Positions 23,928 through 56,377 of a stretch of 64,000 nucleotides of DNA are shown piece by piece. Position 1 is the stretch's first letter, and the number at the start of each line of letters is the position of its first letter. The position numbers and the translations under genes are program-made. This DNA comes from Acidimicrobiia bacterium (GTDB lineage Bacteria; Actinomycetota; Acidimicrobiia; Spongiisociales; ZC4RG35): the NCBI GenBank assembly GCA_965209025.1, contig OZ242375.1, positions 258,302 through 322,301 on the forward strand. The letters run 5' to 3'. The notes under the pieces were generated by a model. That model was given only the letters and a program-made list of their open reading frames with translations, did no database searches and was not told the origin of the DNA.

Positions 23928-24700
23928 CGGCTTTGGGAATAGACATAGGAGGATCGGGAGTCAAAGGCAATCTGGTGGACACCGCCACCGGAGCGCTCCT
24001 GTCCGAACGCTTTCGCATACCCACTCCCCGCTCGGGGTCCACCGAGGCGGTGGGCGAGGTGGTGGCGGAGATAGCCGAGCACTTCCGGCAAGAGAGCGGG
24101 CATGAAACCCTCCCGGTGGGGTGCGGGTTTCCCGGGGTGATCAGATCGGGCGTCGTAAGCGCCGCCACCCACCTGGACAAGGCCTGGCTGGGCGCCGACG
24201 TGGTCGCCATTCTCTCCGGGGCGGTCGGGAGCCCGGTCACCGTTCTCAACGATGCGGATGCGGCCGGGGTGGCCGAGATCACCTTCGGGTCGGCCAAGGA
24301 TCGGAGCGGCACGATCCTGATGATCACCCTCGGCACCGGGATAGGGAGCGGGATGTTCCGGGACGGCCGGCTGGTCCCCAATTTCGAACTGGGCATGCTG
24401 GAACTGGGCGGTCATCACCCCATCGAGGACCGGGTGGCCTACCGCGTATTCAAGCAGGGGGAGTTGAGTTGGAAGAAGTGGGCCAGACGGTTGAACCGCT
24501 ACCTACGGCATGTCAACGCGCTCTTCGCTCCGGACCTGATAGTTCTCGGGGGAGGAGGGGTGAACAAGTGGTCCCGCTTCGGCCACCGCCTGGATGTGCC
24601 GGTGGATGTGGCCCCCGCCCACTTCGGGAACCATGCCGGCATCGTCGGCGCCGCCCTGGCCGCGGTGAACCCGGGCGCCCTGATGGGGGATCCCGCCTAA
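23924..24700 (+). CDS. ppgK: ROK-family / polyphosphate glucokinase
   Basis: MTALGIDIGGSGVK sugar-kinase N-terminus and ROK-like core. GTG overlaps the rarA stop. Confidence 0.75.
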   Translation: MTALGIDIGGSGVKGNLVDTATGALLSERFRIPTPRSGSTEAVGEVVAEIAEHFRQESGHETLPVGCGFPGVIRSGVVSAATHLDKAWLGADVVAILSGAVGSPVTVLNDADAAGVAEITFGSAKDRSGTILMITLGTGIGSGMFRDGRLVPNFELGMLELGGHHPIEDRVAYRVFKQGELSWKKWARRLNRYLRHVNALFAPDLIVLGGGGVNKWSRFGHRLDVPVDVAPAHFGNHAGIVGAALAAVNPGALMGDPA

Positions 24701-24858
24701 GAGGACCTGGCCCGGTGTGGGTAGGGCTGGCGTACCAGTCATCACGTCCTTGTCCGTTTGGATCACCGGTTCTGAAACACTTTGGATACGGGTCTCCCCA
24801 CCACTCCAGAGGCTTTGGTTGGTCTCCGGGGTCGGTGCTGGGGTTCCGATCCGTGTGT

Positions 24859-25962
24859 TTAGCTGCTGTGGATGGGGGTGGGTAGGGTTTGGTCACCGCA
24901 GTACAGGGTTTGGTCACCGCGGTACGGGGATTGGGGTGGTTCGTTTGTCCAGTATTGGGCCGATGATCCTTTGGGGTAGTCCGCTCCGGGAATGGGTGGT
25001 GGTAACACGGTGGAGTTCTCCGAGCCATCGTAGACCGCACCTACCGCCTTGTAGTAGGTGCGGAGTTCATTGGCGTCGGTGACCAGCAACGGCAGTTTGC
25101 CTATCCCGATCCTCCCTCCGGTGACCGCGGTGCGGTTCTCTGCCGCCGCGCGTACTTGCTGTTCCAACTCGGCGAGGGGCATATTCAACCGGGCACGCGC
25201 TTCCGGAGTCCGAGCCAACCGTATGTTCTGGGAGACAGCTTTGGGTGGGTTGTCATCAGTTTTCTGCACAAACCACACGGCCAGTTCCAACTCGGTGGCC
25301 CAGGCTTCCACGGTGAGAGTGGGGATTCCAAGAAACAGTACGAGTTCTTTTCCTGCGTAGACTTCCTCGGCTCTGCTGGCCGGGAAATTCAACGTGTTGT
25401 CCACCCATGCATCCTCGCCTCCCTGCTGTTCTATAAAGCATTCCCGATACCCTCCATCGGTGGAAAGAAGTAACGACCGGCGATGTAGCGACGCGGTGAG
25501 GACCGGGGGTCCTTCTCCCACCAGATACTCATTTACCCTGACCTCCGCAAAACAATGCACATGCACGTGAGGCCTAGCAATTGAGTGGACACTCTCGCTT
25601 GTAAAGTTCGGCGGTTTGGCCTGGTAGTCGTCACACCGGAACGTGTCCGGTCGCACCGTTCCTCGGATAACTATATGCGGCATCAGTAGAGGTGATGTAA
25701 GATGCACCGGGCCCCATCCCCCTAGTAGTAGTTCGTTGGGGGTTGGCAGAGGATCCGGGAGACGTTCAGACAATTTCAACGAACTATCCGGTTCCCCTGG
25801 TTCGCAGGGATCTATGTCGCTTCCATCGATAGGAACACAGGGAGGGATCACTTGCTCAAGATGTGATTTCAATGTGGGTGTAGCAGCCGAAAACCAACAA
25901 CCGATTAGCCCCACAGCCAAGACCAGTCCCAGGGTTGCCAGTGTTGTTTTGGTTCTGGTCAT
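24859..25962 (-). CDS. Island paralog 1: secreted (possibly lipo-) protein of an unassigned family, 367 aa
   Basis: Signal peptide MTRTKTTLATLGLVLAVGLIGC. Shares with paralogs 2-4 the conserved blocks IPPC.P..G...DPC, VHCF..VRVNEYL.G.GPP, LFLGIPTLTVEAW and LPLLVTDAN.L..YY.AVGAVYD. C-terminus carries a YRGDQTL/YCGDQTL 7-aa tandem repeat. Confidence 0.7.
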   Translation of the reverse strand: MTRTKTTLATLGLVLAVGLIGCWFSAATPTLKSHLEQVIPPCVPIDGSDIDPCEPGEPDSSLKLSERLPDPLPTPNELLLGGWGPVHLTSPLLMPHIVIRGTVRPDTFRCDDYQAKPPNFTSESVHSIARPHVHVHCFAEVRVNEYLVGEGPPVLTASLHRRSLLLSTDGGYRECFIEQQGGEDAWVDNTLNFPASRAEEVYAGKELVLFLGIPTLTVEAWATELELAVWFVQKTDDNPPKAVSQNIRLARTPEARARLNMPLAELEQQVRAAAENRTAVTGGRIGIGKLPLLVTDANELRTYYKAVGAVYDGSENSTVLPPPIPGADYPKGSSAQYWTNEPPQSPYRGDQTLYCGDQTLPTPIHSS

Positions 25963-26095
25963 TCTGGTTCTCTTTGGCTTTGGATGGTCTCCTAGGTTCA
26001 GGGGTCTAGGGGTTCCGAGCCGGGTGGTTGGTCGTCGGCTCCGGGTATGGGTGGTGGTTTGGCGGGTGTTAGGGTGGGGTCGTCGTAGACAGCAT
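25921..26095. repeat. Paralog junction cassette, copy 1 (tail-coding, stop, about 40-nt spacer, start, signal-peptide coding)
   Basis: The tctggttctctttg(g/c)ctttggatggtctcc(t/a/g)aggttc(a/g)gg block and flanking sequence recur at the 5' ends of paralogs 1 and 3 and of the fragment. Confidence 0.6.
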
Positions 26096-26189
26096 CCGTT
26101 GGTGGTGAGTTAGCGGGCGCGGTGCCGCAGCTTTGCCCGACAGCAAGGACCAGTCCCAGAGTCACCAGTGTGGTTTTGGTTCTGGTCAT
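25998..26189 (-). pseudogene. Internally deleted remnant of a family member: signal peptide fused directly to the Pro-rich C-terminal tail (63 aa)
   Basis: The N-terminus MTRTKTTLVTLGLVLAVGQSCGTAPANSPPTDAV is near-identical to the paralog 3 N-terminus. It is followed immediately by YDDPTLTPAKPPPIPGADDQPPGSEP, which matches the paralog C-terminal tails. The whole core is missing. Confidence 0.55.
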
Positions 26190-26330
26190 TCTGGTTCTCT
26201 TTGCCTTTGGATGGTCTCCAAGGTTCGGGCGTTTAGGGGTTACGAGCCGGGTGGTTGGTCGTCTTCACCGGGGGTGGGTGGGGTTCCGTTCGGGGTTTCG
26301 TTTTCTCCGGTGTTGGCGGGCGGGCCGGGG
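26131..26330. repeat. Paralog junction cassette, copy 2
   Basis: Near-identical to 25921-26095 and 28655-28960 by eye. Confidence 0.6.
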
Positions 26331-27475
26331 AGTTGATCGGCACCAGGGACCGGTGGGGGTAGGACGGTGGAGTTTTCCGAACCGTCGTAGACCGCTCCGA
26401 CCGCTCCATAAAAGTCCCGCAGTTTGTTGGCGTCGGTTACCAGCATCGGAAGATCAGATGCCATCCCGATCCGCCCTCCGGTGACGGCAACACGGTTAGT
26501 GGCTGCCGCTTTCACTTGTCGTTCTAGTTCTGCCAATGTCAGGTTCATCCGGGCACGCTGCTCAGAAGTACGCGCCAGCCTTATGTTCCGTTCAACAACT
26601 CTCGGCGGGTTATTACCAGTTTGCTGCACAAACCACACGGCCATTAGCAACTCCGTCTCCCATGCTTCCACAGTGAGCGTGGGGATTCCAAGAAACAGCA
26701 CAAGTTCTTTACCTTCGTAAACCGCGCCTGTTCGGCGAGCAGGAAAGTCGAGGGCATTGTCCACCCATTGGTCCTCGCCCCCGTGCAGAGCTATAAACGA
26801 ATCACGATAGCCTCCATCAGTGGGAAGGTGTACTATTTCCCGGTGCAGCGACACAGTCAATTCTGGAGGTCCTGTCCCTACCAGATACTCGCTTACACGG
26901 ATTTGAGCGAAACAATGAACATGGACGATTAAGTCATGATATGGATGCAGTTCGGCAGCGTAGCTCGCGACCTTTAGTGGATAGTCTTCGCATCTGGTTG
27001 TACCAGGTTGCGGTGTGCCTCTGATGACTACGTGCGGCAGCAACAACGGGTCCGCAGTGCCTTGGGGACTCCACTTTCCTAATAGCAGGTCAGCCATGGT
27101 TGGCAGTGGGTCTGGCAGACCCTCAGAGGAGCCTTCCGCGGCGGCTTTCCGGACTCTGGTCGGTTCTCCAGGAACGCAGGGATCAGCGTCGCTGCCGTCT
27201 ATGGGTGTGCAGGGGGGAATGACTTCTTCCAGATATGCAGGAGGTGTTTCTTCTCGAGCCTGACCTGCCGTCACGTCTCTATAAGTATTGGCATCTTGCG
27301 TTCGCGCAGTTGTGGCTGTTGGTTCTTGAAGTGTGGTTACAGGGGTGGGAACGGTTACGTCGGGTTGGTCCGTGGTAGGTCCTGTTCCTGTAGCGGTTGT
27401 TTTGCAGGCTTGGATAAAAACCAGTGTTGCCAATAGCCACGGCAACGCTCTCCTCTTAGTTGTTGCACCTTTCAT
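26240..27475 (-). CDS. Island paralog 2: secreted protein of the same family, about 411 aa
   Basis: Start chosen at ATG 27475 (AGGAAG SD with 6-nt spacer). ATG 27493 is the alternative. Signal peptide ...LPWLLATLVFIQAC, Thr/Pro linker, conserved family blocks. Pro-rich tail PPPVPGADQLPGPPANTGENETPNGTPPTPGEDDQPPGS. Confidence 0.7.
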   Translation of the reverse strand: MKGATTKRRALPWLLATLVFIQACKTTATGTGPTTDQPDVTVPTPVTTLQEPTATTARTQDANTYRDVTAGQAREETPPAYLEEVIPPCTPIDGSDADPCVPGEPTRVRKAAAEGSSEGLPDPLPTMADLLLGKWSPQGTADPLLLPHVVIRGTPQPGTTRCEDYPLKVASYAAELHPYHDLIVHVHCFAQIRVSEYLVGTGPPELTVSLHREIVHLPTDGGYRDSFIALHGGEDQWVDNALDFPARRTGAVYEGKELVLFLGIPTLTVEAWETELLMAVWFVQQTGNNPPRVVERNIRLARTSEQRARMNLTLAELERQVKAAATNRVAVTGGRIGMASDLPMLVTDANKLRDFYGAVGAVYDGSENSTVLPPPVPGADQLPGPPANTGENETPNGTPPTPGEDDQPPGS

Positions 27476-27568
27476 GGCATTCTTCCTTGTCATCCGTTTA
27501 TCCGCAATGGATGAATCTTGGGCTCTACCTTCCCATGGGGTTCGAGGAGGCCGAAGGATGGCGGTGTG

Positions 27569-28723
27569 TCAGGGTGTGGGAGGAGGTGTTTGGTCATCGT
27601 CTCCGGGCACAGGGGGTTGGTTGTCATCTCCGGGGGTGGGTGGGGTTCCGTTCGGGGTCTCTTCTTCGCCGGTGTTGGCTGGTGGTTCTTCGGGGTCTTC
27701 TGCTCCGGGTACGGGTGGTGGTTTGGCGGGTGTTTGGGCGGGGTCGTCGTAGACGGCGCCGATGGCTCCGTAGTAGGTACTGAGCTGGTTGGCGTCGGTG
27801 ATGAGCAGGGGCAGGTTGGGGTCGGTTCCGACCCGTCCGCCGGTGTTCGCCTTTCGGGTGGCGTCCGCTTGGGTGATCTTGGTTCGGAAGTCGGTTAAGG
27901 AGAAGTCCAATAGTGCTAGGTTTTCGGGTGTCTGGGGGTATTCGTGTTTGTCGGGGGCGATCACCCTTATTACACCGCCTACTTGCTGCACATCCCAGAA
28001 AAACGTCATTTCCCAAGCTTCCATCCGAACGCTGAAGCCAGCGGAGAGGAACAGGACTCCTTCGACACCTTCGTATGTGTCGATGACCTGTTCGTCCAGG
28101 GGCTGGGAGTGTCCAGGATTCGACGGCCAATTCAAACCTGTGATGACGCTCAGTTGGGGAGGTCCTGTTCCCAGCAGGTATTCGTTCACCCGCACATCGG
28201 AGAAACAAAAGAGATATTCCCATCCTGCAAAAGCCTTTCGGATGCGTTCCTCCAAATACGTTGGCAGCGTTGTGGCGTGGATCTCACACCTGGTTGTGTC
28301 TGGCAGTACAGTGCCACGGATAAGAATGTGCGTGGAGCTAGTAGCTACCAGGTCCCAGTAGTTCAAGACTTCGTGGAGTGGGGGAGCGTGAACCTTTGTT
28401 TCTTCTGATAGCATTACACCGTCAGCGGGTTCGATGGAGGGTGGTGGTCCGGTTGCGCATGGGTCTCGGTTGGTTCCGGCCACCGGGGTGCACGGAGGAA
28501 TCGTTTCCTCCAGGTATGTGAGATTCGCCTCTTCTAGTGCAGGTGCGGTAGTTGTAGGGGTAGCCGTGGTAGTTGTGGTTGACCGTGGCTCTTTAGAGGG
28601 ACTGTGAGTGGTGGTTGTGACAACAGCATCCGTTGGTGGTGAGTTAGCGGGCGCGGTGCCGCAGCTTTGTCCGACAACAAGGACCAGTCCCAGAGTCACC
28701 AGTGTGGTTCTTGTTCTGGTCAT
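27569..28723 (-). CDS. Island paralog 3: secreted protein of the same family, about 384 aa
   Basis: Start at ATG 28723 (MTRTRTTLVTLGLVLVVGQSCG). The ORF-track start at 28825 would overlap the paralog 4 tail. Thr-rich linker, conserved blocks, Pro-rich tail. Confidence 0.7.
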   Translation of the reverse strand: MTRTRTTLVTLGLVLVVGQSCGTAPANSPPTDAVVTTTTHSPSKEPRSTTTTTATPTTTAPALEEANLTYLEETIPPCTPVAGTNRDPCATGPPPSIEPADGVMLSEETKVHAPPLHEVLNYWDLVATSSTHILIRGTVLPDTTRCEIHATTLPTYLEERIRKAFAGWEYLFCFSDVRVNEYLLGTGPPQLSVITGLNWPSNPGHSQPLDEQVIDTYEGVEGVLFLSAGFSVRMEAWEMTFFWDVQQVGGVIRVIAPDKHEYPQTPENLALLDFSLTDFRTKITQADATRKANTGGRVGTDPNLPLLITDANQLSTYYGAIGAVYDDPAQTPAKPPPVPGAEDPEEPPANTGEEETPNGTPPTPGDDNQPPVPGDDDQTPPPTP

Positions 28724-28960
28724 TCTGGTTCTCTTTGCCTTTGGATGGTCTCCGAGGTTCGGGCGTTTAGGGTTCCGAGCCGGGTGGTTCATCATCGTCA
28801 CCGGGGACGGGTGGGGTTTGATCATCGCCGGGGGTGGGTGGGGTTCCGTTCGGAGTCTCGTTTTCGCCGGTGTTGGCGGGTGGGTTTTCGGGGTCTTCGG
28901 CTCCGGGGACTGGTGGTGGTTTGGCGGGTGTTTGGGTGGGGTCGTCGTAGACGGCGCCGA
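28655..28960. repeat. Paralog junction cassette, copy 3 (paralog 4 tail / paralog 3 start)
   Basis: Same conserved block. The Pro-rich tail coding sequence of paralog 3 (27590-27760) is also shared. Confidence 0.6.
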
Positions 28961-29939
28961 TGGCTCCGTAGTGGGTACTGAGTTTGTTGGCGTCGGTGAT
29001 CAGCAGGGGCAGGTTTGGGTCGGTGCCGACCCGCCCTCCGGTGTTCGCCGTTCGGGTGGCTGCTGCTTGGGTGATCTTGGTCCGGAAGTCTTCAAGGGTG
29101 TTGTCCAACAGTGCAAGGTTCTCTGTTGTTTGGGGGTATTCGTGTTTGTCGGGAGCGATCACCCTTGTTACACCGCCGACTTGCTGCACGTCCCAGAAGT
29201 ACACCATTTCCCAGGCTTCAAGTTGAAGGTTGAAACCCGTGGAGAGAAAGAGGATCCCTTCGACGCCCTCGTATGTGTCGATGACCTGTTCGTCCAGAGG
29301 CGGCCCCAGACGGTACTCAGGACCCAGCGGCCGATCCCAATTCGTAATCACGCTCAGTTGGGGAGGTCCTGTTCCCAGCAGGTACTCGTTTACCCGCACA
29401 TCGGAGAAACAATAGAGATGCTCCCATCCGGCAAAACGCTTTCGGTCAAAATCATCCCAATACGTTGGCAGAGTTAAGAGGAAGATCTGACACCTGGTCG
29501 TGTCTGGCAGTACAGTGCCCCGCAGAACTATATGAACCGACCTAGCAGGATCCCTGTCTCTGTAATTCAAGACTTCGTGGAGTGGGGGAGCGTAAACCTT
29601 TGCTGCTTCTGATATCATTACACCATCATCGGGCTCGATGGAGGGTGGTGTTCCGGCAGCGCAGGGGTCTCGGTTTGTTCCGGCTACCGGGGTGCATGGA
29701 GGAATCGTTTCCTCTAGATATGCAGCGTTCGCTTCCTCTTTTGCGACCCTTGACGGAGTTGCGGTTGTTGTAGGCGCAGCCGTGATGGTTGTGGTTGGCC
29801 GCAACTCTAATGAAGGGTTGTGAGTGGTGGTCGTGACAACAGCATCCGTTGGCGGTGAGTTAGCGGGTGCGGTGCCGCAGGCTTGCGCGATGACCCATAC
29901 CAAACTTGTGACAACTAGCAGGGTTTTGGGGGTGTTCAT
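28767..29939 (-). CDS. Island paralog 4: secreted protein of the same family, about 390 aa
   Basis: Start at ATG 29939 (MNTPKTLLVVTSLVWVIAQAC, with an AXA-type cleavage site), AAGGA 8 nt upstream, 29 nt after the giant gene's stop. About 80% identical to paralog 3. Confidence 0.7.
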   Translation of the reverse strand: MNTPKTLLVVTSLVWVIAQACGTAPANSPPTDAVVTTTTHNPSLELRPTTTITAAPTTTATPSRVAKEEANAAYLEETIPPCTPVAGTNRDPCAAGTPPSIEPDDGVMISEAAKVYAPPLHEVLNYRDRDPARSVHIVLRGTVLPDTTRCQIFLLTLPTYWDDFDRKRFAGWEHLYCFSDVRVNEYLLGTGPPQLSVITNWDRPLGPEYRLGPPLDEQVIDTYEGVEGILFLSTGFNLQLEAWEMVYFWDVQQVGGVTRVIAPDKHEYPQTTENLALLDNTLEDFRTKITQAAATRTANTGGRVGTDPNLPLLITDANKLSTHYGAIGAVYDDPTQTPAKPPPVPGAEDPENPPANTGENETPNGTPPTPGDDQTPPVPGDDDEPPGSEP

Positions 29940-29968
29940 CTTCTTTGTCCTTTCGTTCTCCCCTGGTG

Positions 29969-32900
29969 TTATGGTGTGTTGTCTGATTGGTAGAGTGCTT
30001 TGAGGGCGACGATGTCCATCGGTTGTGGTGCACATATGCGATTCGTTGTAGGGGCGGTGTCAGTTTTCTTTCTCATGATGCTTTCGTTGGGGTTTGTCGT
30101 GGCGTGTCCCAGACCCCAGATGTGACCCGCTTCGTGAGTGGCAACTTCGAGGCGCAGAGAGCAGTTGTTTCCTCCTGCCCATGTGGCATCCGTGGGTCCT
30201 TTCACGAAAAACATGGCGTATTTGGTGTATCCGCTTACATTGGGATCGAACGGCGGTACGACAGCTAATGCTGTGTCCGAGAGTTTCGGGTAGTACACCT
30301 TTACCTGTGTGCTGGTTTGGAGTGAGACTCTTCTGGTGTCTTCTTCAAGGCAGTTGTCGCCGGATTCTTGGGTGATTACGGATGAGCTGATGTTTCGGCC
30401 GTCTGGTGTGGTGAAGCCTTGCATGGCTGTGGTCCATTTGGTGAATCCTTGTTTGATTTCGTTGATCCATGTTTGGGTCATATCTTTTGTGCATATTTTG
30501 TAGGCGTAGTGGAGGGGTGACAGATCGTGACGGTAGGGTATCCCGGCTACGCTAAACCCGCCGCTGGTTGATGGTTCCTCCGCAGTTGTAAAAACGAGAA
30601 TGGTTTCGCTGGACCAGGGCGATTGGTCTGCTGCGTTGCCGGATCGCACTTGGACGGCGTAAAGGCGGCTGATCCGCAGCCCGGTGATCGCATAAGATGT
30701 GCTGGTGATCTTGTCGGATACCGGGGTCCAGGTGCCGCTGCAGGTCGGGGGATCGGCGCACGTTTTGTATCGGACCTTGTAGTACTCGGCGGTGGTGGCC
30801 GGAGCGTCGGTGGTGGACACGGGGTTCCATGTCATCTTGATCTGGGCTTCGTCGGGTCGTAGATGAACGTGTGCGGTTGGGCTGTGTCCGTTGGCGCGTA
30901 GTCCTGTGGGCGTGGGTGGAGCGCCTGTGACTGTCCAGGTGGTGACGGGTTCGGACCATTGGGATTGGTGGTGTTGGTAGCCGGTGGTGGTGTCGTTGGC
31001 GCGGATGTGGATCCGGTAGTTTCGGCCGATGGTGAGGGTGCTGTGGGTTCCGGTGTTTTTGACTATTTTGACCGTGAACACTCCTTGGGAGTCGGGTGCG
31101 ATTTCCAGTTGGTTTGTGCCGGTGCAGTCGTTCCCGGTGCCGTCTCCTACGCAGTAGGCCTGTTGGGTGGTTACCGTGTCGGGGCAGTCGCTGCCTGTTT
31201 CGACGCAGTATGTGATGTCGTAGCCTTGTGCGTGGGCTACTTGGTTCCATTTGATGTTCAACGCGGGGGTTTGTGGGTGGGCCAGGTTGAACCCGTCGGC
31301 GACTACTCCGGTGGGTTTTGCCAGTAGTAGGGATGTTTCGATGGTGTGGGATCCGAGGTTGGTGGTGGTGGTGCTGGTGCGGCTGATCTCGATCCGGTAG
31401 TCAACGGATCCGGTGGTGAGCCCGGGTGGGTTCCATTCGACGAGGTTGCCGTGCACGGTGGAGGTTTGGGAGGCAAGGTCGGTGGTGGTTCCGACGGTTC
31501 CTGCTGTTATTTCTGCCCAGGTGAGGACGAACGGCACGCTTGAGGAGACCTCGAGTTTGATCTTGTCGGGTGTTACGTCTCTAAGGGTGTATCGCTTGGC
31601 GTAGACGGTTTCGGTGGTGCTGGTGCGATGGACGGCCTTGCAGTCGGTGGTCCAGTCGTGTCTGGTGGTTGTTTGTGGCAGGTCCGTGGTGCAGGCGTCT
31701 GTGGAGGGCGGAACAGTGGTCGTAGTAGTAGTGGTGGTGGTGGTCGTAGTGGTGGTGGTGGTGGAGCGGGTGGTTTGTTTGGTGACGGTTCGTTCGCAGG
31801 TGGGCGGGTTGGTGGTTTTGTTCAGGGTGTATTCGGTTGGGCAGGACCAAACGGGATCGATTGTGGTCGGTCGGGTGGTTTGTTTGGTTACGGTCCTTTT
31901 GCAGGTGGGTGGATCGGTGGTTTCGTCCAAGGTGTAGCCGGTTCCGCAGGACCATTGGGTTTCGGTTGTGGTCGGTTGGGTGGTTTCTCGGGTTACTGGG
32001 CGGGAGCAGGTGGGCGAGAGCCCGGATTCGCCTTCCACACCACCTCCGCTGGCTCCTGATTGGGGACCGATGCCTTTTTGGTATCCGGGCGGGCAGGAAT
32101 AGGTTGTTTGGATGGTGGCGTTGCGCGTGGTTTCTCGGGTGATTGTGCGGGAGCAGGTGGGTGAGAGACCCGATTCACCCTCGACGCCGCCGCTGTTGCC
32201 GGTGGGTCCTGTTTGGCCGCCGATGCCTTTTTGGTATCCGGGGGGACAGGAGAAGGTGGTTTGGGTGGTGGCGTTGCGCGTGGTTTCTCGGGTGATTGTG
32301 CGGGAGCACGTGGGCGAGAGCCCGGATTCGCCTTGGGCGCCACCGTCGCCGCTGCTGCCGGTGGGTCCTGTTTGGCTGCCGAGGCCTTTTTGGTATCCGG
32401 GGGGACAGGTCCAGTCTGTCCGTGATGAAGCGTTGCGGGTGGTGTCGCGAGTGATGGTGCGGGAGCAGGTGGGTGAGAGCCCGGATTCGCCTTCCACGCC
32501 GCCGTCGTCGTTGTTGTTTCCGCTGCTGCCGCCGGCTTGTGATTGGCCGCCGAGGCCTTTTTGGTATCCGTCGGGGCAGGTGAAAGTTGTCCGGATTGAA
32601 GCGGTAAGAGTGGTGGAACCCGACCGCCTGTAAGAACAGATGGACTCGTTTCGGCTGCTGTACGAGTAAGTGGCCGGTGCCGACGGGCACGAATACGATG
32701 TGGTGGCGGTGCGGGTGGTGCTGGTCGACCGCGTGTAAGTACAAGTAGTTCCGCTGCGGCTGCTGTACGTATAGGTGGCCGGCGCCGACGGGCACGAATA
32801 CGATGTGGTGGCGGTGCGGGTGGTGCTGGTCGACCGCGTGTAAGTACAAGTAGTTCCGCTGCGGCTGCTGTACGAATAGGTGGAAGGCGCCGACGGGCAG

Positions 32901-34471
32901 GAGTAGAGGGTGGTGGCGGTGCGGGTGGTGCTGGTCGATCGGGTGTAGGTGCAGGTGGTGCCGCTGCGGCTGCTGTACGAATAGGTGGAAGGCGCCGACG
33001 GGCACGAATATGACGTTCGGGCGGTGCGGGTGGTGGAACCCGACCGCGTGTAATAACACGTCGACCCGACCCGATGACTATACGAAAACGTAGAAGGAGC
33101 ACCGGGGCAGTTATACCCCGCAGTGGGGTGTGCCACAGCCCTGCGGGTAGTGGTCGTGGATCGGGTGTACGTACAGGTGGTGCCGTTTCGGCTGCTGTAG
33201 GAGTAGGTAGATGGCGCCGACGGGCACGAATATGAGGTGGTGGCGGTGCGGGTGGTGGAACCCGACCGCGTGTAATAACAGGTGGAACCACTCCTCCTGC
33301 TATAGGTGAAGGTCCCCAACGAACCGGGACACGAATACGACGTGTTAGCGGTGCGGGTAGTGGAACTCGACCGCGTGTACGTACAAGTGGACCCGCTCCG
33401 GCTGCTGTACGAATACGTAGAAGGAGCAGAGGGGCACGAGTAGGAGGTGTTGGCGGTGCGGGTGGTGGACCCCGACCTCGTGTACGTGCAAGTGGACCCG
33501 CTTCGGCTGCTGTACGAGAACGTGGAAGGCGCAGAAGGGCACGAATACGATGTGGTGGCGGTGCGGGTGGTGCTGGTCGACCGGGTGTAAGTGCAGGTTC
33601 TGCCGCTCCTGCTGCTGTAGGTGTAGGTGGCGGGCGCAGCCGGACACGTGTACACCGTCGTCCCGGTGGCGTCGATCGTCTCGGTGTCCTCATACGTGTA
33701 ATGACAGACAGACCCGTCTCGTCGGACGAACGCCAATCCGTCCTCGGTCGGACACGTGTACACCGTCGTTCCGGTGGCGTCGATCGTCTCGGTGTCCTCG
33801 TAGGTGTAGTGACAGACAGACCCGTCTCGTCGGACGAACGTCAGTCCGTCCTCGGTGGGACAGGTGTACACGGTGGTGCCGGTGGCGTCGATCGTTTCGG
33901 TGTCCTCGTAGGTGTAGTGGCAGACAGACCCGTCCCGCCGAACAAATGTCAGGGTGGCTTCGGTCGGACACGAGTAGGTCGTGGTTCCGGTGGCGTCGAT
34001 GGTTTCTGTGTCCTCGTAGGTGTAGTGGCAGACAGACCCGTCTCGTCGGACGAACGTGTACCCCGCAGGCGACGGACACTCCTCAACGGTCGACGAAGTC
34101 GCTGCTGTGCTTTCGACGCTCTCGTAGGTGTAATGACACGTTGACCCGTCCTTCCGGACCAGCGTGTACCCCGCAGGCGACGGGCACACCTCTTCGGTCG
34201 TGCCCGTGTCAGTAGCAGGTACGCTCTCAACCTCCTCGTAGGTGTAATGACACGTCGAACCGTCCCGCCGGACAAACGTCAGCCCCTCCGGCATCGGGCA
34301 GGCACCGTTGGAACCAGCCTCCAAACTGACCCACCCATTGTCCTCCAGTCCCATCCCGCCGACCGCCAACGGCACAACCGACAACAAAGCCCCCAACGCC
34401 ACAACGGCCACCAGTCCCGACCTTCCCCTCCTCGACCTTCCCCCCCTCGCTCTCCGGTAGGGACTGGCCAT
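29969..34471 (-). CDS. Giant secreted multi-repeat protein (1500 aa) with C-terminal metzincin-type zinc metalloprotease domain
   Basis: ATG 34471 is preceded by AGGAGG with a 5-nt spacer. Arg-rich signal peptide. Three families of Cys-containing tandem repeats, a run of about 17 Thr, beta-rich modules, and HEAGHIWGLGH (encoded at 30104-30136, minus strand) followed by a SIM Met-turn. Confidence 0.85.
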   Translation of the reverse strand: MASPYRRARGGRSRRGRSGLVAVVALGALLSVVPLAVGGMGLEDNGWVSLEAGSNGACPMPEGLTFVRRDGSTCHYTYEEVESVPATDTGTTEEVCPSPAGYTLVRKDGSTCHYTYESVESTAATSSTVEECPSPAGYTFVRRDGSVCHYTYEDTETIDATGTTTYSCPTEATLTFVRRDGSVCHYTYEDTETIDATGTTVYTCPTEDGLTFVRRDGSVCHYTYEDTETIDATGTTVYTCPTEDGLAFVRRDGSVCHYTYEDTETIDATGTTVYTCPAAPATYTYSSRSGRTCTYTRSTSTTRTATTSYSCPSAPSTFSYSSRSGSTCTYTRSGSTTRTANTSYSCPSAPSTYSYSSRSGSTCTYTRSSSTTRTANTSYSCPGSLGTFTYSRRSGSTCYYTRSGSTTRTATTSYSCPSAPSTYSYSSRNGTTCTYTRSTTTTRRAVAHPTAGYNCPGAPSTFSYSHRVGSTCYYTRSGSTTRTARTSYSCPSAPSTYSYSSRSGTTCTYTRSTSTTRTATTLYSCPSAPSTYSYSSRSGTTCTYTRSTSTTRTATTSYSCPSAPATYTYSSRSGTTCTYTRSTSTTRTATTSYSCPSAPATYSYSSRNESICSYRRSGSTTLTASIRTTFTCPDGYQKGLGGQSQAGGSSGNNNDDGGVEGESGLSPTCSRTITRDTTRNASSRTDWTCPPGYQKGLGSQTGPTGSSGDGGAQGESGLSPTCSRTITRETTRNATTQTTFSCPPGYQKGIGGQTGPTGNSGGVEGESGLSPTCSRTITRETTRNATIQTTYSCPPGYQKGIGPQSGASGGGVEGESGLSPTCSRPVTRETTQPTTTETQWSCGTGYTLDETTDPPTCKRTVTKQTTRPTTIDPVWSCPTEYTLNKTTNPPTCERTVTKQTTRSTTTTTTTTTTTTTTTTVPPSTDACTTDLPQTTTRHDWTTDCKAVHRTSTTETVYAKRYTLRDVTPDKIKLEVSSSVPFVLTWAEITAGTVGTTTDLASQTSTVHGNLVEWNPPGLTTGSVDYRIEISRTSTTTTNLGSHTIETSLLLAKPTGVVADGFNLAHPQTPALNIKWNQVAHAQGYDITYCVETGSDCPDTVTTQQAYCVGDGTGNDCTGTNQLEIAPDSQGVFTVKIVKNTGTHSTLTIGRNYRIHIRANDTTTGYQHHQSQWSEPVTTWTVTGAPPTPTGLRANGHSPTAHVHLRPDEAQIKMTWNPVSTTDAPATTAEYYKVRYKTCADPPTCSGTWTPVSDKITSTSYAITGLRISRLYAVQVRSGNAADQSPWSSETILVFTTAEEPSTSGGFSVAGIPYRHDLSPLHYAYKICTKDMTQTWINEIKQGFTKWTTAMQGFTTPDGRNISSSVITQESGDNCLEEDTRRVSLQTSTQVKVYYPKLSDTALAVVPPFDPNVSGYTKYAMFFVKGPTDATWAGGNNCSLRLEVATHEAGHIWGLGHATTNPNESIMRKKTDTAPTTNRICAPQPMDIVALKALYQSDNTP
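31990..32600. repeat. Intragenic tandem repeat family C (about 156 nt / 52 aa, 4 copies)
   Basis: Protein unit: CPPGYQKGIGGQTGPTGNSGGVEGESGLSPTCSRTITRETTRNATIQTTYS. DNA copies are more than 90% identical. Confidence 0.75.
32600..33640. repeat. Intragenic tandem repeat family B (about 105 nt / 35 aa, roughly 10 copies)
   Basis: Protein unit: SYSCPSAPSTYSYSSRSGTTCTYTRSTSTTRTATT. Near-identical DNA copies (the ggtggcggtgcgggtggtgctggtcgaccgcgtgtaagtacaagtagttcc block recurs). Confidence 0.8.
33640..34300. repeat. Intragenic tandem repeat family A (about 108 nt / 36 aa, roughly 8 copies)
   Basis: Protein unit: CPTEDGLTFVRRDGSVCHYTYEDTETIDATGTTVYT. Several copies are nucleotide-identical. Confidence 0.8.
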
Positions 34472-34637
34472 AAATGCCTCCTACCACCCACCCTAAACAC
34501 CATCCGCACACTATGCACACAGAGTTTTCATAAAAATCCCAATCATCTTCACTAAAATATCAACAATTCGACCCGATCACTCCCTATATGGCCACCAAGT
34601 GGGAGCGACTCCCGTCCGGGCCCCGAGCGGGGGTGGG
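34472..34637 (-). promoter_or_regulatory. AT-rich putative promoter/leader of the giant gene, with a consensus Shine-Dalgarno
   Basis: Contains gagttttcataaaaatcccaatcatcttcactaaaatatcaacaattcg. This is the most AT-rich stretch in the window. AGGAGG lies 5 nt before the ATG. Confidence 0.4.
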
Positions 34638-35963
34638 TCAGATGTCGTCGGTCTGGCGGTTAATGAAGGCAGAGAAGCGACTCACCTGGTCGGGGGGGAG
34701 CCTGACTACCAAATCCATTCCTTCGGGGCCCTCGCTCGAGGAGAGAACTTCTCCTGTGCGGTGGAGAGCCGCTAACGCATCTCCTCGGGCGTAGGGCACC
34801 CGCACCGAGATGGTCGAGGAGCGGGCGTTCAGCCATTGGGTGAGGGTCTCCATCAGTTTCTCGGTTCCCTCTCCGGTGAGCGCCGACACGGCGACTGCGG
34901 TCTCGGAGGCTCCTAAGAGGCGCCGGACCACTGTGGAAGACGCCTCATCGATCTTGTTCACCACGATGATGGTCGGCACCGAGTCCGCCCCGATCTCGGC
35001 CAGGACCTCCCGGACCGCCTCGATTTGGCCTTCCGGATCGGATTCGGCGGCGTTCACGAGATGGAGTATCAGGTCGGCGTCGCGGACCTCCTCCAGAGTG
35101 GACTGGAAAGCTTCGACCAGGCGGTGGGGGAGTCTCCGCACGAATCCCACGGTGTCGGCCATGAGCATCTCCCGGCCTCCTGGTAGCCGGAGGCGGCGGA
35201 TGGTGGGATCCAGGGTGGTGAACAGGCGGTCTTCGGTGAGCACCCCGGCGCCGGTCAGCTGGTTTAGGAGGGTCGACTTGCCGGCGTTGGTGTAACCGAC
35301 CAGGGCGATGATGGGCACTGCGGCCTGGACGCGGGATTGGCGCCGGGTTTGGTTCTGCCGCCTAAGGGCGGCGAGGTCCTTCTCGAGGGAGGTGATCCTC
35401 TGGCGGATGCGGCGGCGGTCGCTCTCGAGGCGGGTCTCTCCCGGTCCCCGGGTTCCGATCCCTCCCGCCTGCTGGGAAAGCTCCTCGCCCGTGCCGCGAA
35501 GACGGGGCAGCCGGTAGCGCAGCAGCGCAAGTTCCACCTGGAGCGCTCCCTCCCGGGAGTTGGCGTGCTGGGCGAAGATGTCGAGGATCACCGCTTCGCG
35601 GTCCACGACGTCACATTCGAACAGTCCCTGCAGGTTGCGTTGCTGTGCGGGGGTGAGGGCATTGTCGAACACCACCACGTCGATGTCCTCTGCTTTGGTG
35701 ATGTCGGCCACTGACGCTGCCTGGCCCTTGCCGATGAACAGCCCCGGATCGGGAGCGGGCCGGTTGAACACCTCCCGGTCGACCGGCTCGGACCCGGCGG
35801 TGTCGGTCAGCAGAGCCAACTCTTCGAGGGACTGTTCCACCTCGAGAGATGAGTTGCGCCCCAAACGCACTCCCACCAGGAAGGCTCTCTGGCGGGGTAC
35901 CTCGAGGTCTGCAACCGTGGCGGTGAGCCGGCGGCGTTCCCGGCCGAGATGTTGATAAGTCAT
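34638..35963 (-). CDS. hflX: GTPase HflX
   Basis: HflX N-terminal domain plus G-domain GYTNAGKSTLLN, DTVGF, NKID. Confidence 0.9.
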   Translation of the reverse strand: MTYQHLGRERRRLTATVADLEVPRQRAFLVGVRLGRNSSLEVEQSLEELALLTDTAGSEPVDREVFNRPAPDPGLFIGKGQAASVADITKAEDIDVVVFDNALTPAQQRNLQGLFECDVVDREAVILDIFAQHANSREGALQVELALLRYRLPRLRGTGEELSQQAGGIGTRGPGETRLESDRRRIRQRITSLEKDLAALRRQNQTRRQSRVQAAVPIIALVGYTNAGKSTLLNQLTGAGVLTEDRLFTTLDPTIRRLRLPGGREMLMADTVGFVRRLPHRLVEAFQSTLEEVRDADLILHLVNAAESDPEGQIEAVREVLAEIGADSVPTIIVVNKIDEASSTVVRRLLGASETAVAVSALTGEGTEKLMETLTQWLNARSSTISVRVPYARGDALAALHRTGEVLSSSEGPEGMDLVVRLPPDQVSRFSAFINRQTDDI

Positions 35964-36340: not shown

Positions 36341-37366
36341 TCACCCGCCTATGTAGCTCATCTCCACCTTTTGCCCGATCCCCACCGTCTCGCCCGAGCG
36401 TAGCTCCGAGTACTGGTCCACCCGCTCCGACCAGACCGAGCCGATCTGCCGGCGAAGCTCCTCATCGGATGCCCCGGAGCGGACCGCCTCCCGGAGATCG
36501 GTCCCGAACACCGCGAACAGGCAGGTGTAGAGCTTTCCGTCGGCCGAGAGTCTGGCGCGGGTGCAGTCACCGCAGAAAGGCTGGGTCACCGATGCGATCA
36601 CCCCCAACTCTCCCTGACCGTCGGCGTACCGCCAGCGCTTCGCCACCTCGCCCCGGTAGTTGGGGTCGAGTGGCTCGATGGGAAAGACGGCGTTGACGGT
36701 GCTGATGATCTCGTGCGCCGGGGTCACGTCGTCCAGCCTCCAGCCGTTGGTGACGCCGACATCCATGTATTCGATGAAGCGGAGGATGTGGCCGCTCCCC
36801 CGGAAGTGCTCCGCCATCTCCAGGATGGAGTGGTCGTTTACCCCCCTCCGGACCACCATGTTGACCTTGATGGGAGTGAGCCCCGCATCGGCTGCCGCGT
36901 CGATCCCGGCCAGCACGTCGGACACCTTGGCGCCCACGTCGTTCATGGTCGAGAAGACCTCGTCGGAGAGAGAGTCGAGGCTCACCGTCACCCGGTCCAA
37001 TCCGGCCTCGGCCAGCGCTGGCGCCTTTCGGGGAAGCAAGACTCCGTTGGTGGTGAGGGTAAGATCGGCGACGCCGGGCACCTCGGCCAGCATTCTGACC
37101 AGCTTCTCCAGGCCGGCTCTCAGGAGGGGTTCGCCGCCGGTGAGCCGTACCTTCCTCGCGCCCAGGGAGGTGAAGATCCGGGCGAGGCGGGTTATCTCCT
37201 CGAAGCTGAGGAGCGCCGTGCGTTCTAAGAACTTGTAGTCGCGATTGAAGATCTCCTTGGGCATGCAGTACGTGCACCGGAAATTGCACCGGTCGGTGAC
37301 CGAGATGCGCAGGTCCGCCAGGATCCGGCCCAGGCGGTCGAAAGGCTTGACGTCGAGGTTGCTCAC
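36341..37366 (-). CDS. moaA: GTP 3',8-cyclase (molybdenum cofactor biosynthesis protein A)
   Basis: Radical-SAM CNFRCTYC, C-terminal 4Fe-4S Cys cluster (CGDCTRAR) and GG-tail-interacting region. Confidence 0.9.
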
Positions 37367-53651: not shown

Positions 53652-53744
53652 CAGTCTCCACAGCGACCGGCGGGGCCGCCGGCAGGGAGAGGGCGCCGAG
53701 AATGGAGCCTCTTTTCGTTTACATTCCGTTAAGAAAGGGGGTAT

Positions 53745-53760
53745 CATCTCCAGCGTTCAT
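53745..53760. promoter_or_regulatory. Perfect inverted repeat GTTCA-N6-TGAAC, 47 nt upstream of the liv substrate-binding protein gene
   Basis: Reads gcGTTCAttgaagTGAACaa, inside an AT-rich leader. Confidence 0.3.
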
Positions 53761-53806
53761 TGAAGTGAACAACTTACAGAATTCCTTCGGAACAGAGGAG
53801 AGAAAC

Positions 53807-56377
53807 ATGCTCCGCTTACCAACAACTACAAGGGCTAGGGGACTGCTCAAGTTCCTGGTCGTGCTCTCTTGCGCAGCGCTTGTCCTTTCGGCTTGCGGCG
53901 ACGACGAGACCGAAGAACCGACCGCCACCGCGGCTCCGACCACTGCCGCCCCGGATGAACCTACGGAGGAGATGCCCATGATGGACCATCTCGGAGATGG
54001 TTCGTTGGGTGTTGTGGAGGTGGAGCCGGGTGAGGCTGTCCAGATCCGTTCGTTGAACGCGATCACGGGTGATGTGGCCTTCTTCGGCCTGCCGATCGAG
54101 CGGTCCGTGGTTTTGGCGATCGCCGACTACGGGCAGATTCATGGTTTTGATGTGGATATGGGTACCGGCTTGGATGACCTGTGTTCCAATGATGGGGGTC
54201 AGGCTGCGGCTCAGATCATCGTTGCCGACGAGGATGTGATCGGTGTGATCGGGACTTCGTGTTCCGGGGCGGCCACGGCTGCGGCGCCGTTGATCACCGA
54301 TGCTGGGATGGTGCTGATCTCGGGTGGTAACACCTCGCCTGCGCTTACTTCGGACCTGGCTGGTACGGCTGGAGCGAACTACAGCTACGGGTATTACCGG
54401 ACGGCTCATAACGACCTGTTCCAGGGTCGGGTGATGGCTGAGTTCGTGTTCAACGAACTGGGCATCTCCACTGCGGCTGCTATTCACGACGGAGACCCCT
54501 ATACGCAGGGTTTGGCGAAGGCTTTCACCGATGCGTTTGACGCGTTGGGTGGTGATGTGACCGGTTTCTCGGCTGTGAACAAGGAGGACACCGACATGGT
54601 GCCGGTGCTCACCGAGATCGCGGCGGGGAGTCCCGGGGCATTGTTCTTCCCGATCTTCCAGCCCGCCGGCGACTTCGTAGCCGAACAGGCCCCCGGTGTC
54701 TCCGGCTTGGAGAACACGGTGCTGTTGGCGGCTGATGGTTTGTTGAATACCTCGTATCTGGCTTTGTCGCAGACCGAGGGGATGTACTTCTCGGGTCCGG
54801 ACACCCGGTTCGGTCAGAACGTCAACGCCAGCACCGGTAAGACGGCCCAGGATTTCCTGGCTGCCTACGAAGGGGATTACGGCGAGGCGCCTGCCGCGCC
54901 TTTCTGGGCTCACGGCTATGACGCCACCACCTTGCTGCTCGACGCCATCACCGCCGCCTCCTACGTTTCCGAGGACGGCTCGTTGATGGTTGACCGCCAG
55001 GGAGTCCGCGAGTATCTCGACAACGTAAGGGACTACCAGGGTCTGATCGGCTTGATCAGTTGCGATGACTTCGGTGACTGCGGTTCGCAGTTGATCACCG
55101 TGGTCTACCACCAGAGCGCCGACAATCCGGAAGCCACCATGGGCAATGTCGTCTACTCCGGAGGCGGAAGCGGAGAGGGGACGATGGAGCCCCTCGGCGA
55201 CGGTTCTTTGGGCACCGTTACCGTGGAGCCCGGTGAGGCTGTCCAAATCCGTTCGCTGAACGCGATCACCGGTGATGTGGCCTTCTTCGGCCTGCCGATC
55301 GAGCGGTCCGTGGTGCTGGCCATCTCCGACTACGGGCAGATCCACGGTTTCGATGTCGATATGGGTACCGGCTTGGATGACCTGTGTTCCAATGATGGGG
55401 GTCAGGCTGCTGCTCAGATCATCGTTGCCGATGAGGATGTGATCGGTGTGATCGGGACTTCGTGCTCGGGTGCGGCCACGGCTGCGGCGCCGTTGATCAC
55501 CGATGCGGGTATGGTGCTGATCTCGGGTGGTAACACCTCGCCTGCGTTGACTTCGGACCTGGCCGGGACGGCGGGAGCGAACTACAGCTACGGCTATTAC
55601 CGGACGGCTCATAACGATCTGTTCCAGGGTCGGGTGATGGCGGAGTTCGTCTTCAACGAACTGGGTATCTCCTCTGCGGCTGCCATTCATGACGGCGATC
55701 CTTATACGCAGGGTCTGGCGAAGGCTTTCACCGATGCGTTCGACGCGTTGGGTGGTGATGTGACTGGTTTCTCGGCTGTGAACAAGGAGGACACCGACAT
55801 GGTGCCGGTCCTCACCGAGATCGCGGCGGGGAGTCCGGGTGCGTTGTTCTTCCCGATCTTCCAGCCCGCCGGCGACTTCATCGCTGAGCAGGCGCCAGGG
55901 GTTTCGGGCTTGGAGAGCACGGTGCTGTTGGCGGCTGATGGTTTGCTGAACACCTCGTATCTGGCTTTGTCGCAGACTGAAGGCATGTACTTCTCGGGTC
56001 CGGACACGCGGTTCGGCGAGAATGTCAACGCCAGTACCGGGAAGTCGGCCCAGGATTTCCTGGCTGCTTACGAGCGCGACTACGGTGAACCGCCTGCGGC
56101 GCCTTTCTGGGCGCATGGCTATGACGCCACCACGATGCTGCTGGACGCCATCGCCGCGGCTTCGCACCTCGCTGACGACGGTTCCTTGATAGTCGACCGG
56201 CAGGGAGTGCGTGCTTTCTTGGACGGCGTCCGCAACTATCAGGGTCTGATCGGGCTGATCAGCTGTGATGACTTCGGTGACTGCGGTTCGCAGTTGATCA
56301 CCGTGGTCCACCACCAGAGCGCCGACAACCCGGAGGCGAGCATGGGCAATGTCGTCTACTCCGGCGGAGGCAACTGA
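53807..56377 (+). CDS. Branched-chain amino-acid ABC transporter substrate-binding lipoprotein, tandem double-domain (two LivJ/LivK-like modules fused in frame)
   Basis: ATG 53807 with GGAGAG SD. Lipobox LSAC. Two type-I periplasmic-binding-protein modules, each about 390 aa, with DNA more than 90% identical by eye, joined by an SGEGT linker. Confidence 0.8.
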   Translation: MLRLPTTTRARGLLKFLVVLSCAALVLSACGDDETEEPTATAAPTTAAPDEPTEEMPMMDHLGDGSLGVVEVEPGEAVQIRSLNAITGDVAFFGLPIERSVVLAIADYGQIHGFDVDMGTGLDDLCSNDGGQAAAQIIVADEDVIGVIGTSCSGAATAAAPLITDAGMVLISGGNTSPALTSDLAGTAGANYSYGYYRTAHNDLFQGRVMAEFVFNELGISTAAAIHDGDPYTQGLAKAFTDAFDALGGDVTGFSAVNKEDTDMVPVLTEIAAGSPGALFFPIFQPAGDFVAEQAPGVSGLENTVLLAADGLLNTSYLALSQTEGMYFSGPDTRFGQNVNASTGKTAQDFLAAYEGDYGEAPAAPFWAHGYDATTLLLDAITAASYVSEDGSLMVDRQGVREYLDNVRDYQGLIGLISCDDFGDCGSQLITVVYHQSADNPEATMGNVVYSGGGSGEGTMEPLGDGSLGTVTVEPGEAVQIRSLNAITGDVAFFGLPIERSVVLAISDYGQIHGFDVDMGTGLDDLCSNDGGQAAAQIIVADEDVIGVIGTSCSGAATAAAPLITDAGMVLISGGNTSPALTSDLAGTAGANYSYGYYRTAHNDLFQGRVMAEFVFNELGISSAAAIHDGDPYTQGLAKAFTDAFDALGGDVTGFSAVNKEDTDMVPVLTEIAAGSPGALFFPIFQPAGDFIAEQAPGVSGLESTVLLAADGLLNTSYLALSQTEGMYFSGPDTRFGENVNASTGKSAQDFLAAYERDYGEPPAAPFWAHGYDATTMLLDAIAAASHLADDGSLIVDRQGVRAFLDGVRNYQGLIGLISCDDFGDCGSQLITVVHHQSADNPEASMGNVVYSGGGN
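53990..56370. repeat. About 1.18-kb in-frame tandem direct duplication (copy A about 53990-55170, copy B about 55190-56370)
   Basis: Long runs of identical sequence between the two halves of the SBP gene. Confidence 0.75.

Follow-up and report, generated by a model that had tools for sequence, protein, structure and literature searches.

The question raised by one gene in a 64 000-nucleotide (nt) stretch of an Acidimicrobiia bacterium (contig OZ242375.1; the whole stretch is called the window below) is what kind of repeat fills the larger part of a predicted secreted protease and what it could do for the enzyme. The gene encodes a protein of 1500 amino acids (aa), in which 22 tandem units with two cysteines each (six of type A, ten B, four C and two D) make up the N-terminal 60%, and a metzincin-type domain ends the chain. 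The reading that we favour, and consider rather likely, is that of an exported multi-domain zinc endopeptidase whose repeat array would be a disulphide-stapled scaffold or surface binder for the catalytic head. The protease appears to be a divergent but recognizable matrixin-like enzyme and no new kind of catalyst; the new element would be the carrier.

Layout of the protein

A first-pass annotation, made from the DNA letters without database searches, had described a 1500-aa open reading frame (ORF) with a signal peptide, three repeat arrays and a C-terminal protease. The ORF is real, and its signal-like segment and protein-level layout, examined by ORF calling and hydropathy, were essentially right. 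A Shine-Dalgarno sequence, GGAGG, lies 6 nt 5' of the ATG. From N- to C-terminus the order is the signal-like segment, 6 + 10 + 4 + 2 two-Cys units, 16 threonines, beta-rich modules ending in a fibronectin type III (FN3) domain, and the metzincin domain. The composition is 20.7% Thr and 12% Ser, with 56 Cys. Repeat units were delimited by cutting the protein sequence at the first Cys of each. The features, in window coordinates, are as follows.

29969..34471, minus strand: whole ORF, 1500 aa and stop codon, an uninterrupted 4503 nt
34337..34471, minus strand: aa 1-45, Arg-rich N-terminus and then a hydrophobic segment (hydropathy; homologs have an N-terminus of the same type)
33647..34300, minus strand: A array, 6 units of 36-38 aa (CP..G.TFVRRDGS.CHYTYE...), aa 58-275
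32579..33646, minus strand: B array, 10 units of 35-39 aa (CPSAPSTYSYSSRSGTTCTYTRSTSTTRTATTSYS), aa 276-631
31949..32578, minus strand: C array, 4 units of 49-57 aa, aa 632-841
31739..31948, minus strand: D units, 2 units of 35 aa (C.TGYTL...PPTC.RTVTKQTTR), aa 842-911
31715..31762, minus strand: linker, a run of 16 Thr, aa 904-919, overlapping the end of the last D unit
31307..31714, minus strand: aa 920-1055, beta-rich module with the Cys pair C927 and C944, kept in orthologs
30911..31306, minus strand: aa 1056-1187, probable FN3-like module, the first of two, containing a Cys-rich insertion (no Pfam match)
30584..30910, minus strand: aa 1188-1296, FN3 domain
29972..30583, minus strand: aa 1297-1500 (204 residues), predicted metzincin catalytic domain, matrixin-like, M10-type
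30104..30136, minus strand: zinc-binding motif HEAGHIWGLGH, aa 1446-1456
30074..30076, minus strand: Met1466 of the Met-turn (ESIM)

The earlier counts of about ten 35-aa units, four 52-aa units and two CPTEYTL-type units (aa 842-911) stand, as does the count of two Cys per unit, which is exact (44 Cys in 22 units). The 36-aa unit occurs six times (aa 58-275) rather than about eight, and the run of about 17 Thr is present with 16 residues.

The only strongly hydrophobic segment of the whole protein is aa 19-38. The first 45 residues are probably a Sec signal peptide; they might also act as an uncleaved signal anchor. A motif scan of the protein found no lipobox, no twin-Arg motif and no LPXTG or LAXTG wall-anchor motif, and attachment as a lipoprotein or through LPXTG, as well as export through Tat, were rejected.

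One module behind four types of unit

Where three distinct repeat families had been described, there are four variants (A, B, C and D) of one two-Cys module of ~36 residues, all having the frame C-P-x(3-5)-[YF]...turn...C-x-[YR]-T...T-R-x-A...[YW]-x-C. In the C units the sole difference is a Gly/Ser-rich stretch inserted between the cysteines, which widens the C1-C2 spacing to 29-37 from the 15-17 seen elsewhere. With all four types accounted for as variants of a single module, three unrelated repeat families are ruled out.

A consensus was drawn from 95 distinct C-x16-C units, taken from the window protein and 22 homologs, and reads C-P-x2-P-x2-Y-x-Y-x2-R-x-G-x2-C-x-Y-x-R...T-R-x-A. Its positions are C1, P2 (85%), P5 (82%), Y8, Y10, R13 (86%), G15 (88%), T17, C18, Y20 (94%), R/K22 (91%), T27, R28, A30 and a Tyr two residues ahead of the next Cys. 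Ten of them besides the cysteines (P2, P5, Y8, Y10, R13, G15, Y20, R/K22, R28 and A30) are kept in 58-94% of the units. Past C18, a Ser/Thr face alternates with a Tyr/Arg/Ala face, and this alternation points to the periodicity of a beta strand. Tandem Repeats Finder gives the arrays scores of 480-968; as the Cys, Tyr, Arg and Gly positions are also common to 95 units of 23 proteins, the repeats are far beyond chance.

An AlphaFold2 (AF2) model of four B units, built on a 35-row alignment, shows two strands in each unit, a short one and then a long one, with a turn between them. Because its predicted local distance difference test (pLDDT) value is only 45.6, the hairpin picture is used conditionally below.

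The first-pass annotation recognized none of its repeat families, and the searches agree. No Pfam family matched the B, C or D arrays when the protein was scanned whole or array by array, and a full-length scan against NCBIfam gave no real match for the repeats. A 35-row profile of the module drew 0 matches at E <= 1 from PDB sequences, and the precomputed Pfam annotations of 23 homologs place nothing over their repeats. Matches of the A array to Pfam and NCBIfam families (Ribosomal_L24e, DUF3310, HicA, YdjO and others) were rejected as homology: they are sums of six sub-threshold matches, none of which passes alone (0 stretches), and their common ground is only an R-x-DG hairpin-like pattern. 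The module thus appears new to the copies of Pfam, NCBIfam and PDB that were searched. A definition of the module would give the databases one more domain family and improve gene calling at loci where the genes are split or truncated (such as P0001 and P0016, described later in the text). It would also open a way to learn how uncultured members of the Acidimicrobiia, a little-studied class of actinobacteria, display or target their extracellular enzymes.

Net charge differs greatly between the variants, from -26 in the acidic A array (pI 4.2) through neutral in the C array to +34 in the B array (pI 9.8), which has 1 acidic residue in 356 aa and 51% Ser + Thr. The polyanionic A array and the polycationic B array, made of the same module, directly adjoin one another (aa 58-631; 32579-34300). 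Unit 5 of the B array is a longer, 'odd' unit. In many homologs, too, a unit at about mid-array exceeds those beside it by 2-6 residues.

Age and homogenization of the arrays

The arrays had been called nucleotide-identical and taken as a sign of recent expansion or ongoing homogenization. The first of these descriptions is wrong. Pairwise DNA identity between units is 55-97%, with most pairs at 60-88% and no two units identical, and Tandem Repeats Finder reports 73-87% matches within arrays. Synonymous and non-synonymous differences per site (pS and pN) were estimated by Nei-Gojobori counts between equal-length units, and the mean pS is 0.45 (A) and 0.51 (B) at a mean pN of 0.09 (A) and 0.14 (B). 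The ratio dN/dS between units lies mostly at 0.04-0.3 and synonymous sites are near saturation. High pS with low dN/dS means that the units are old and held by purifying selection at the protein level. Recent expansion is therefore ruled out, with pS of 0.45-0.51 and dN/dS far below 1. There is a single young pair, the units at aa 525 and 560, with 97% DNA identity and a dS of 0.04.

An ortholog on an independent metagenome contig (L001) provides a second view of the arrays. The contig stops within the arrays, before the ORF is complete, so that the A array is cut, but the order A-B-C-D is kept with exactly 10 B units, three C-type units as against four in the window, and two D units. The over-long B unit is again at position 5 (...HPSGGYN, compared with ...HPTAGYN in the window). 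All this holds at only 52% identity between the C-terminal regions of the two proteins, the one pair that could be compared in full. The agreement in order and in B number rules out an assembly artefact, and the same number of B units argues against free variation in the length of that array.

Homogenization survives in a weak form. Each window B unit is nearer in DNA to some other window unit (73-97%) than to any L001 unit (63-79%), from which some concerted evolution or local re-duplication after the split can be read; the homogenization of the arrays is only partial.

The catalytic domain and the modules before it

The C-terminal metzincin of the first-pass annotation is supported by its motif, the Met-turn, a Pfam match, the modelled fold and conservation in the family. 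The motif HEAGHIWGLGH and the following Met1466 are as had been described, the Met-turn being defined as in PMC1266349. On the isolated segment aa 1188-1500, Peptidase_M10 (PF00413) scores 24.5 bits at a cut-off of 24 over profile positions 109-158 of 159, and fn3 (PF00041) scores 29.6 bits at a cut-off of 25. The latter match, together with a beta-sandwich of the FN3 type, bears out the FN3-like character that had been sensed in this region. The modelled catalytic domain has the metzincin fold, with its beta-sheet, active-site helix and C-terminal helix, and a profile search of PDB sequences with the domain found stromelysin-1 at E 1e-4.

An alignment of the FN3 and catalytic regions of 16 family members shows which features are constant. 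In the zinc motif H, E, H and G are invariant, and the third ligand is His or Asp. Nor is there any variation in the Met of the Met-turn, in four Cys or in a C-x-P-x3-D motif ahead of the C-terminal helix. Thirteen of the 16 match Peptidase_M10, and one matches Peptidase_M7, at E 0.016. When 1.84 billion cluster representatives were searched exhaustively with HMMER, a three-sequence profile of the catalytic domain gave 399 matches at E <= 1e-3, 81 at E <= 1e-10 and only 3 at E <= 1e-30, the domain standing at the extreme C-terminus in nearly all. Among 40 of the more distant relatives that were scanned, 35 match Peptidase_M10 (best E 6e-11) and 19 match fn3.

The nearest known enzymes are the matrixins and bacterial peptidases resembling matrix metalloproteinases (MEROPS M10; MMP-3, MMP-9 and fragilysin), which have the same HExxHxxGxxH motif and a Met-turn ~10 residues past the third His, and M10 is the best-matching Pfam family. 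The differences are several. The M10 score of the window protein is at the cut-off and covers the C-terminal third only, the PRCGxPD cysteine-switch pro-peptide is missing, the family has four invariant Cys of its own, and the domain stands last in the chain, closing with a conserved ...YQS(R) tail. Several members carry Asp as the third ligand, as snapalysin does. Snapalysin (M7) and other Asp-zincins (HExxHxxGxxD) are likewise small metzincin-type domains secreted by actinobacteria, and the HExxHxxGxxD form is found in homologs P0003, P0004, P0008, P0012, P0013, P0020 and P0021; the window protein, however, has His at this position.

No PRCG sequence occurs anywhere in the 1500 residues, and the first strand of the catalytic domain comes only ~25 residues after the FN3 domain, which leaves no room for a pro-domain between them. 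The catalytic domain thus belongs to a divergent line of matrixin-like metzincins that in most cases follow an FN3 domain, and its zinc site, catalytic Glu and Met-turn are intact. It would make the protein a zinc endopeptidase with no recognizable pro-peptide or cysteine switch for latency.

The region between the Thr run and the FN3 domain (aa 920-1187) has no Pfam or PDB sequence match but is conserved in orthologs. As aa 1056-1187 open with a PTG..A.G motif, as the FN3 domain after them also does, they are probably FN3-like as well, with an insert rich in Cys.

Relatives and re-use of the array

A search with the non-repeat half of the protein found only two proteins, P0001, which is a mis-called 3' part of the L001 ortholog (52% identical), and P0002, a distant relative. 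A search with the repeat half found 23 clusters at E 1e-80 to 1e-26. All have a signal-like N-terminus, 6-13 B-type units and a Thr-rich linker, and differ in what comes next. In about 16 the linker is followed by FN3 and a metzincin with ...YQSR at its end. In five (P0006, P0007, P0009, P0011 and P0019) it is followed instead by a phospholipase-A2 (PLA2)-like domain, having the motif CKAHDYCYD and matching Phospholip_A2_3 at E 2e-6, just under the cut-off; the PLA2 proteins also carry ricin-type lectin or Calx-beta domains. Since the same array is found on FN3 plus metzincin or on PLA2 plus ricin lectin, it is a portable N-terminal part of different secreted hydrolases. The architecture had been thought unusual, a claim that has to be tempered given its recurrence in ~16 related proteins and the fusion of the array to PLA2.

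Homologs P0003-P0026 have in common with the window protein the two-Cys module, the Thr-rich linker, FN3 and the C-terminal metzincin ending in YQSR, with PLA2 and ricin lectin in place of the protease in the five just named. They have 6-13 units of B type only, as against 22 units in four variants in the window protein, L001 and P0016, which are further extended by an additional beta module and another FN3-like module. With 22 units in a family range of 6-22, the window protein is the largest example found. The arrays of the homologs are all cationic (+12 to +58, pI 8.7-10.8) and ~12% aromatic.

Close relatives are few. An exact-sequence look-up found no record of the 1500-aa protein, nor of P0175, and a literature search for this repeat or architecture in Acidimicrobiia gave nothing relevant. 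Two scans of Joint Genome Institute (JGI) metagenome contigs found no further orthologs or relatives. A profile scan of genomes with a three-member alignment gave six loci, of which one was informative. This locus (L003), in a metagenome-assembled genome of Acidimicrobiia, is the nearest genomic relative. At L003 8751-9944 and 9900-10327 the protease gene has been cut by an ISL3-family transposase, leaving the last ~100 codons, 55% identical. At another locus, L009, there is only a C-type repeat remnant (about 6408-6914) upstream of a cluster of the lipoprotein-like genes that also adjoin the window gene and are described in the last section. The protease gene appears to have been lost repeatedly while the lipoprotein genes persist.

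The annotation had also warned that the locus would be prone to trouble in assembly, and such loci do break both assemblies and gene callers. The L001 contig ends in the arrays, and the gene calls of both P0001 and P0016 are wrong. For P0001 the call covers 487 aa of an ORF of at least 1197 aa (L001 1-3653), and spurious opposite-strand genes are called over the repeats. The P0016 call is frameshifted and starts in a wrong, Arg-rich reading frame. Long alternative-frame ORFs cover the repeats in the window as well, e.g. 31993-33693 on the minus strand, 566 aa. Because gene callers split or truncate these loci, the family is likely to be under-represented in protein databases.

Proposed role and its alternatives

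Under the favoured reading, the protein would be exported by Sec. Each unit would form a disulphide-stapled beta-hairpin in which an R-x-G turn joins a short strand to a long one, the latter having one Ser/Thr face and one Tyr/Arg face. Together the units would build an extended scaffold, resistant to proteases and perhaps O-glycosylated, which keeps the catalytic head at a distance from the cell. The B segment, polycationic (+34) and rich in Tyr, could hold the enzyme on anionic surfaces, either the polymers of the cell's own envelope or those of a target, and the catalytic head would then degrade extracellular proteins. The array, in short, probably functions as a spacer or as a binder of anionic surfaces.

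Several observations weigh against this reading. The AF2 model of the array is unreliable at its pLDDT of 45.6, and neither the hairpin or rod nor the disulphide pairing is established. Charge is no general trait of the module, given the acidic A array (-26) and the neutral C array, and binding to polyanions would be deduced from composition only. The protein has no LPXTG or LAXTG motif by which it might be anchored to a wall. Finally, the full-length protein scores 19.9 bits for M10, under the cut-off of 24 which the isolated segment just passes, and only the C-terminal third of the model aligns.

A bolder version of the favoured reading is possible, and we put it forward tentatively. The module may be a new fold family, a disulphide-stapled beta-hairpin laddered with Tyr and Arg that stacks into a rod of ~9-10 units with an 'odd' unit at mid-array. 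Such a rod might be a general targeting or retention device by which Acidimicrobiia-type bacteria stick lytic enzymes (metzincin, PLA2) onto anionic cell surfaces, and the A (-26) and B (+34) segments could pair or switch binding.

A reading in which the module is primarily a ligand-binding adhesin or targeting domain seems unlikely in its pure form. The ligand would be an anionic polymer (a teichoic-acid-like wall polymer, an acidic polysaccharide, extracellular DNA or membrane), and the array would deliver hydrolase 'warheads' to a target such as competitor or prey cells. All B-type arrays are indeed polycationic and rich in aromatic residues, they are common to two unrelated types of lytic enzyme, and the PLA2 versions add a lectin. 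The array also stands directly after the signal peptide, where known wall-binding repeat modules often sit. These supports are compositional, however, the same protein carries the polyanionic A array, and Pfam and PDB sequence searches found no similarity to known wall-binding or carbohydrate-binding modules. This reading overlaps with the favoured one and does not exclude it.

Less likely again is a variable-length 'periscope' stalk (PMC8201768), in which recombination between near-identical DNA repeats would alter copy number and with it the projection of the protease. Like the periscope and fibrillar-adhesin stalks of SasG, Rib and SHIRT (PMC8201768, PMC8286594), the window protein has a long array of small modules between an export signal and a head, and there are signs of intragenic homogenization: units are closer within the genome than between orthologs and one pair is 97% identical. 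Copy number also varies, from three C units in L001 to four in the window and from 6 to 22 units over the family. But the window protein lacks the defining features of such stalks. Its DNA identities are mostly 60-88% rather than near-identical, only one pair reaching at least 95%, and the synonymous sites are near-saturated. The 10 B units and the odd unit 5 are the same in both orthologs despite 52% C-terminal identity, and a longer mid-array unit recurs in distant members. The head is a C-terminal enzyme rather than an N-terminal adhesin, there is no LPXTG anchor, and the module, at ~36 aa with a Cys pair, is much smaller than Ig-like stalk domains.

It is improbable that the repeat region is an unstructured, mucin-like, O-glycosylated linker rich in Ser and Thr in which the cysteines are incidental. 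The 51% Ser + Thr of the B array, the run of 16 Thr after the arrays, the low confidence of the AF2 model and the lack of known domains over the repeats would all suit such a linker. It would not lead one to expect invariant Cys at a fixed C-x16-C spacing, ten further positions kept in 58-94% of 95 units, a dN/dS of 0.04-0.3 with saturated dS, or a strict two-residue periodicity of the kind typical of beta strands.

That the arrays are a collapsed or chimeric assembly or a decaying pseudogene is hardly credible, for although related loci are damaged or badly assembled (the end of L001 in the arrays, the frameshift of P0016, the ISL3 cut in L003 and the remnant in L009), the 4503-nt ORF is unbroken with a good ribosome-binding site, no pair of units is identical and all are distinct enough for unambiguous assembly, their order and number agree with the independent L001 assembly, and they are under purifying selection.

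Neighbouring genes

Directly downstream of the protease gene lies a cluster of paralogs whose linkage to it constitutes a second lead. Their positions in the window and elsewhere are as follows.

24859..29939, minus strand: four tandem paralogous genes of an uncharacterized family, probable lipoproteins
28767-30035, 27569-28825, 26240-27493 and 24859-25962, minus strand: maximal ORFs of the four paralogs
L001 3671-6134, L003 10261-11538 and L009 8738-13519: members of the paralog family at other loci

The four window proteins are of 367-422 aa, with intergenic gaps of ~30-280 nt. Over all loci the family comprises probable lipoproteins of 367-425 aa with invariant Cys. Their motifs are YLEE.IPPC.P..G..DPC, RGTV.PDTTRC, VRVNEYL.G.GPP and TGGR.G...LPLL.TDAN.L..YYGA.GAVYD, followed by a Pro-rich tail. 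The family has no Pfam or PDB match and numbers only 21 clusters in 5.8 billion proteins. A member follows the protease gene or its remnant in L001, L003 and L009, and another, P0178, would appear to lie on the same contig as P0016, the contigs of both being 9382 bp long. None was found beside the more distant relatives at L010 and L011, so the linkage holds in the nearest relatives only.

The five-gene block (24000-34500) has a GC content of 0.56-0.60 as against 0.65 in the flanking genes, and 65% is also the value for the window. At third codon positions (GC3) the block has 0.52-0.71, compared with 0.78-0.88 in flanking genes. The flanking housekeeping genes are hflX (34638-35963) and moaA (36341-37366). 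This lowered GC3 suggests an accessory or acquired region; window-wide checks for tRNAs and Rfam features found none that would mark the edges of the block, and no integrase was seen there.

A second stretch of lower GC (0.61) in the window contains an ORF of 891 aa at 53702-56377 on the plus strand. It has a lipoprotein-like N-terminus and consists of two nearly identical halves of ~400 aa, which by eye resemble periplasmic binding domains of the branched-chain amino-acid ABC type, so that a whole domain seems to have been duplicated in tandem within the gene.

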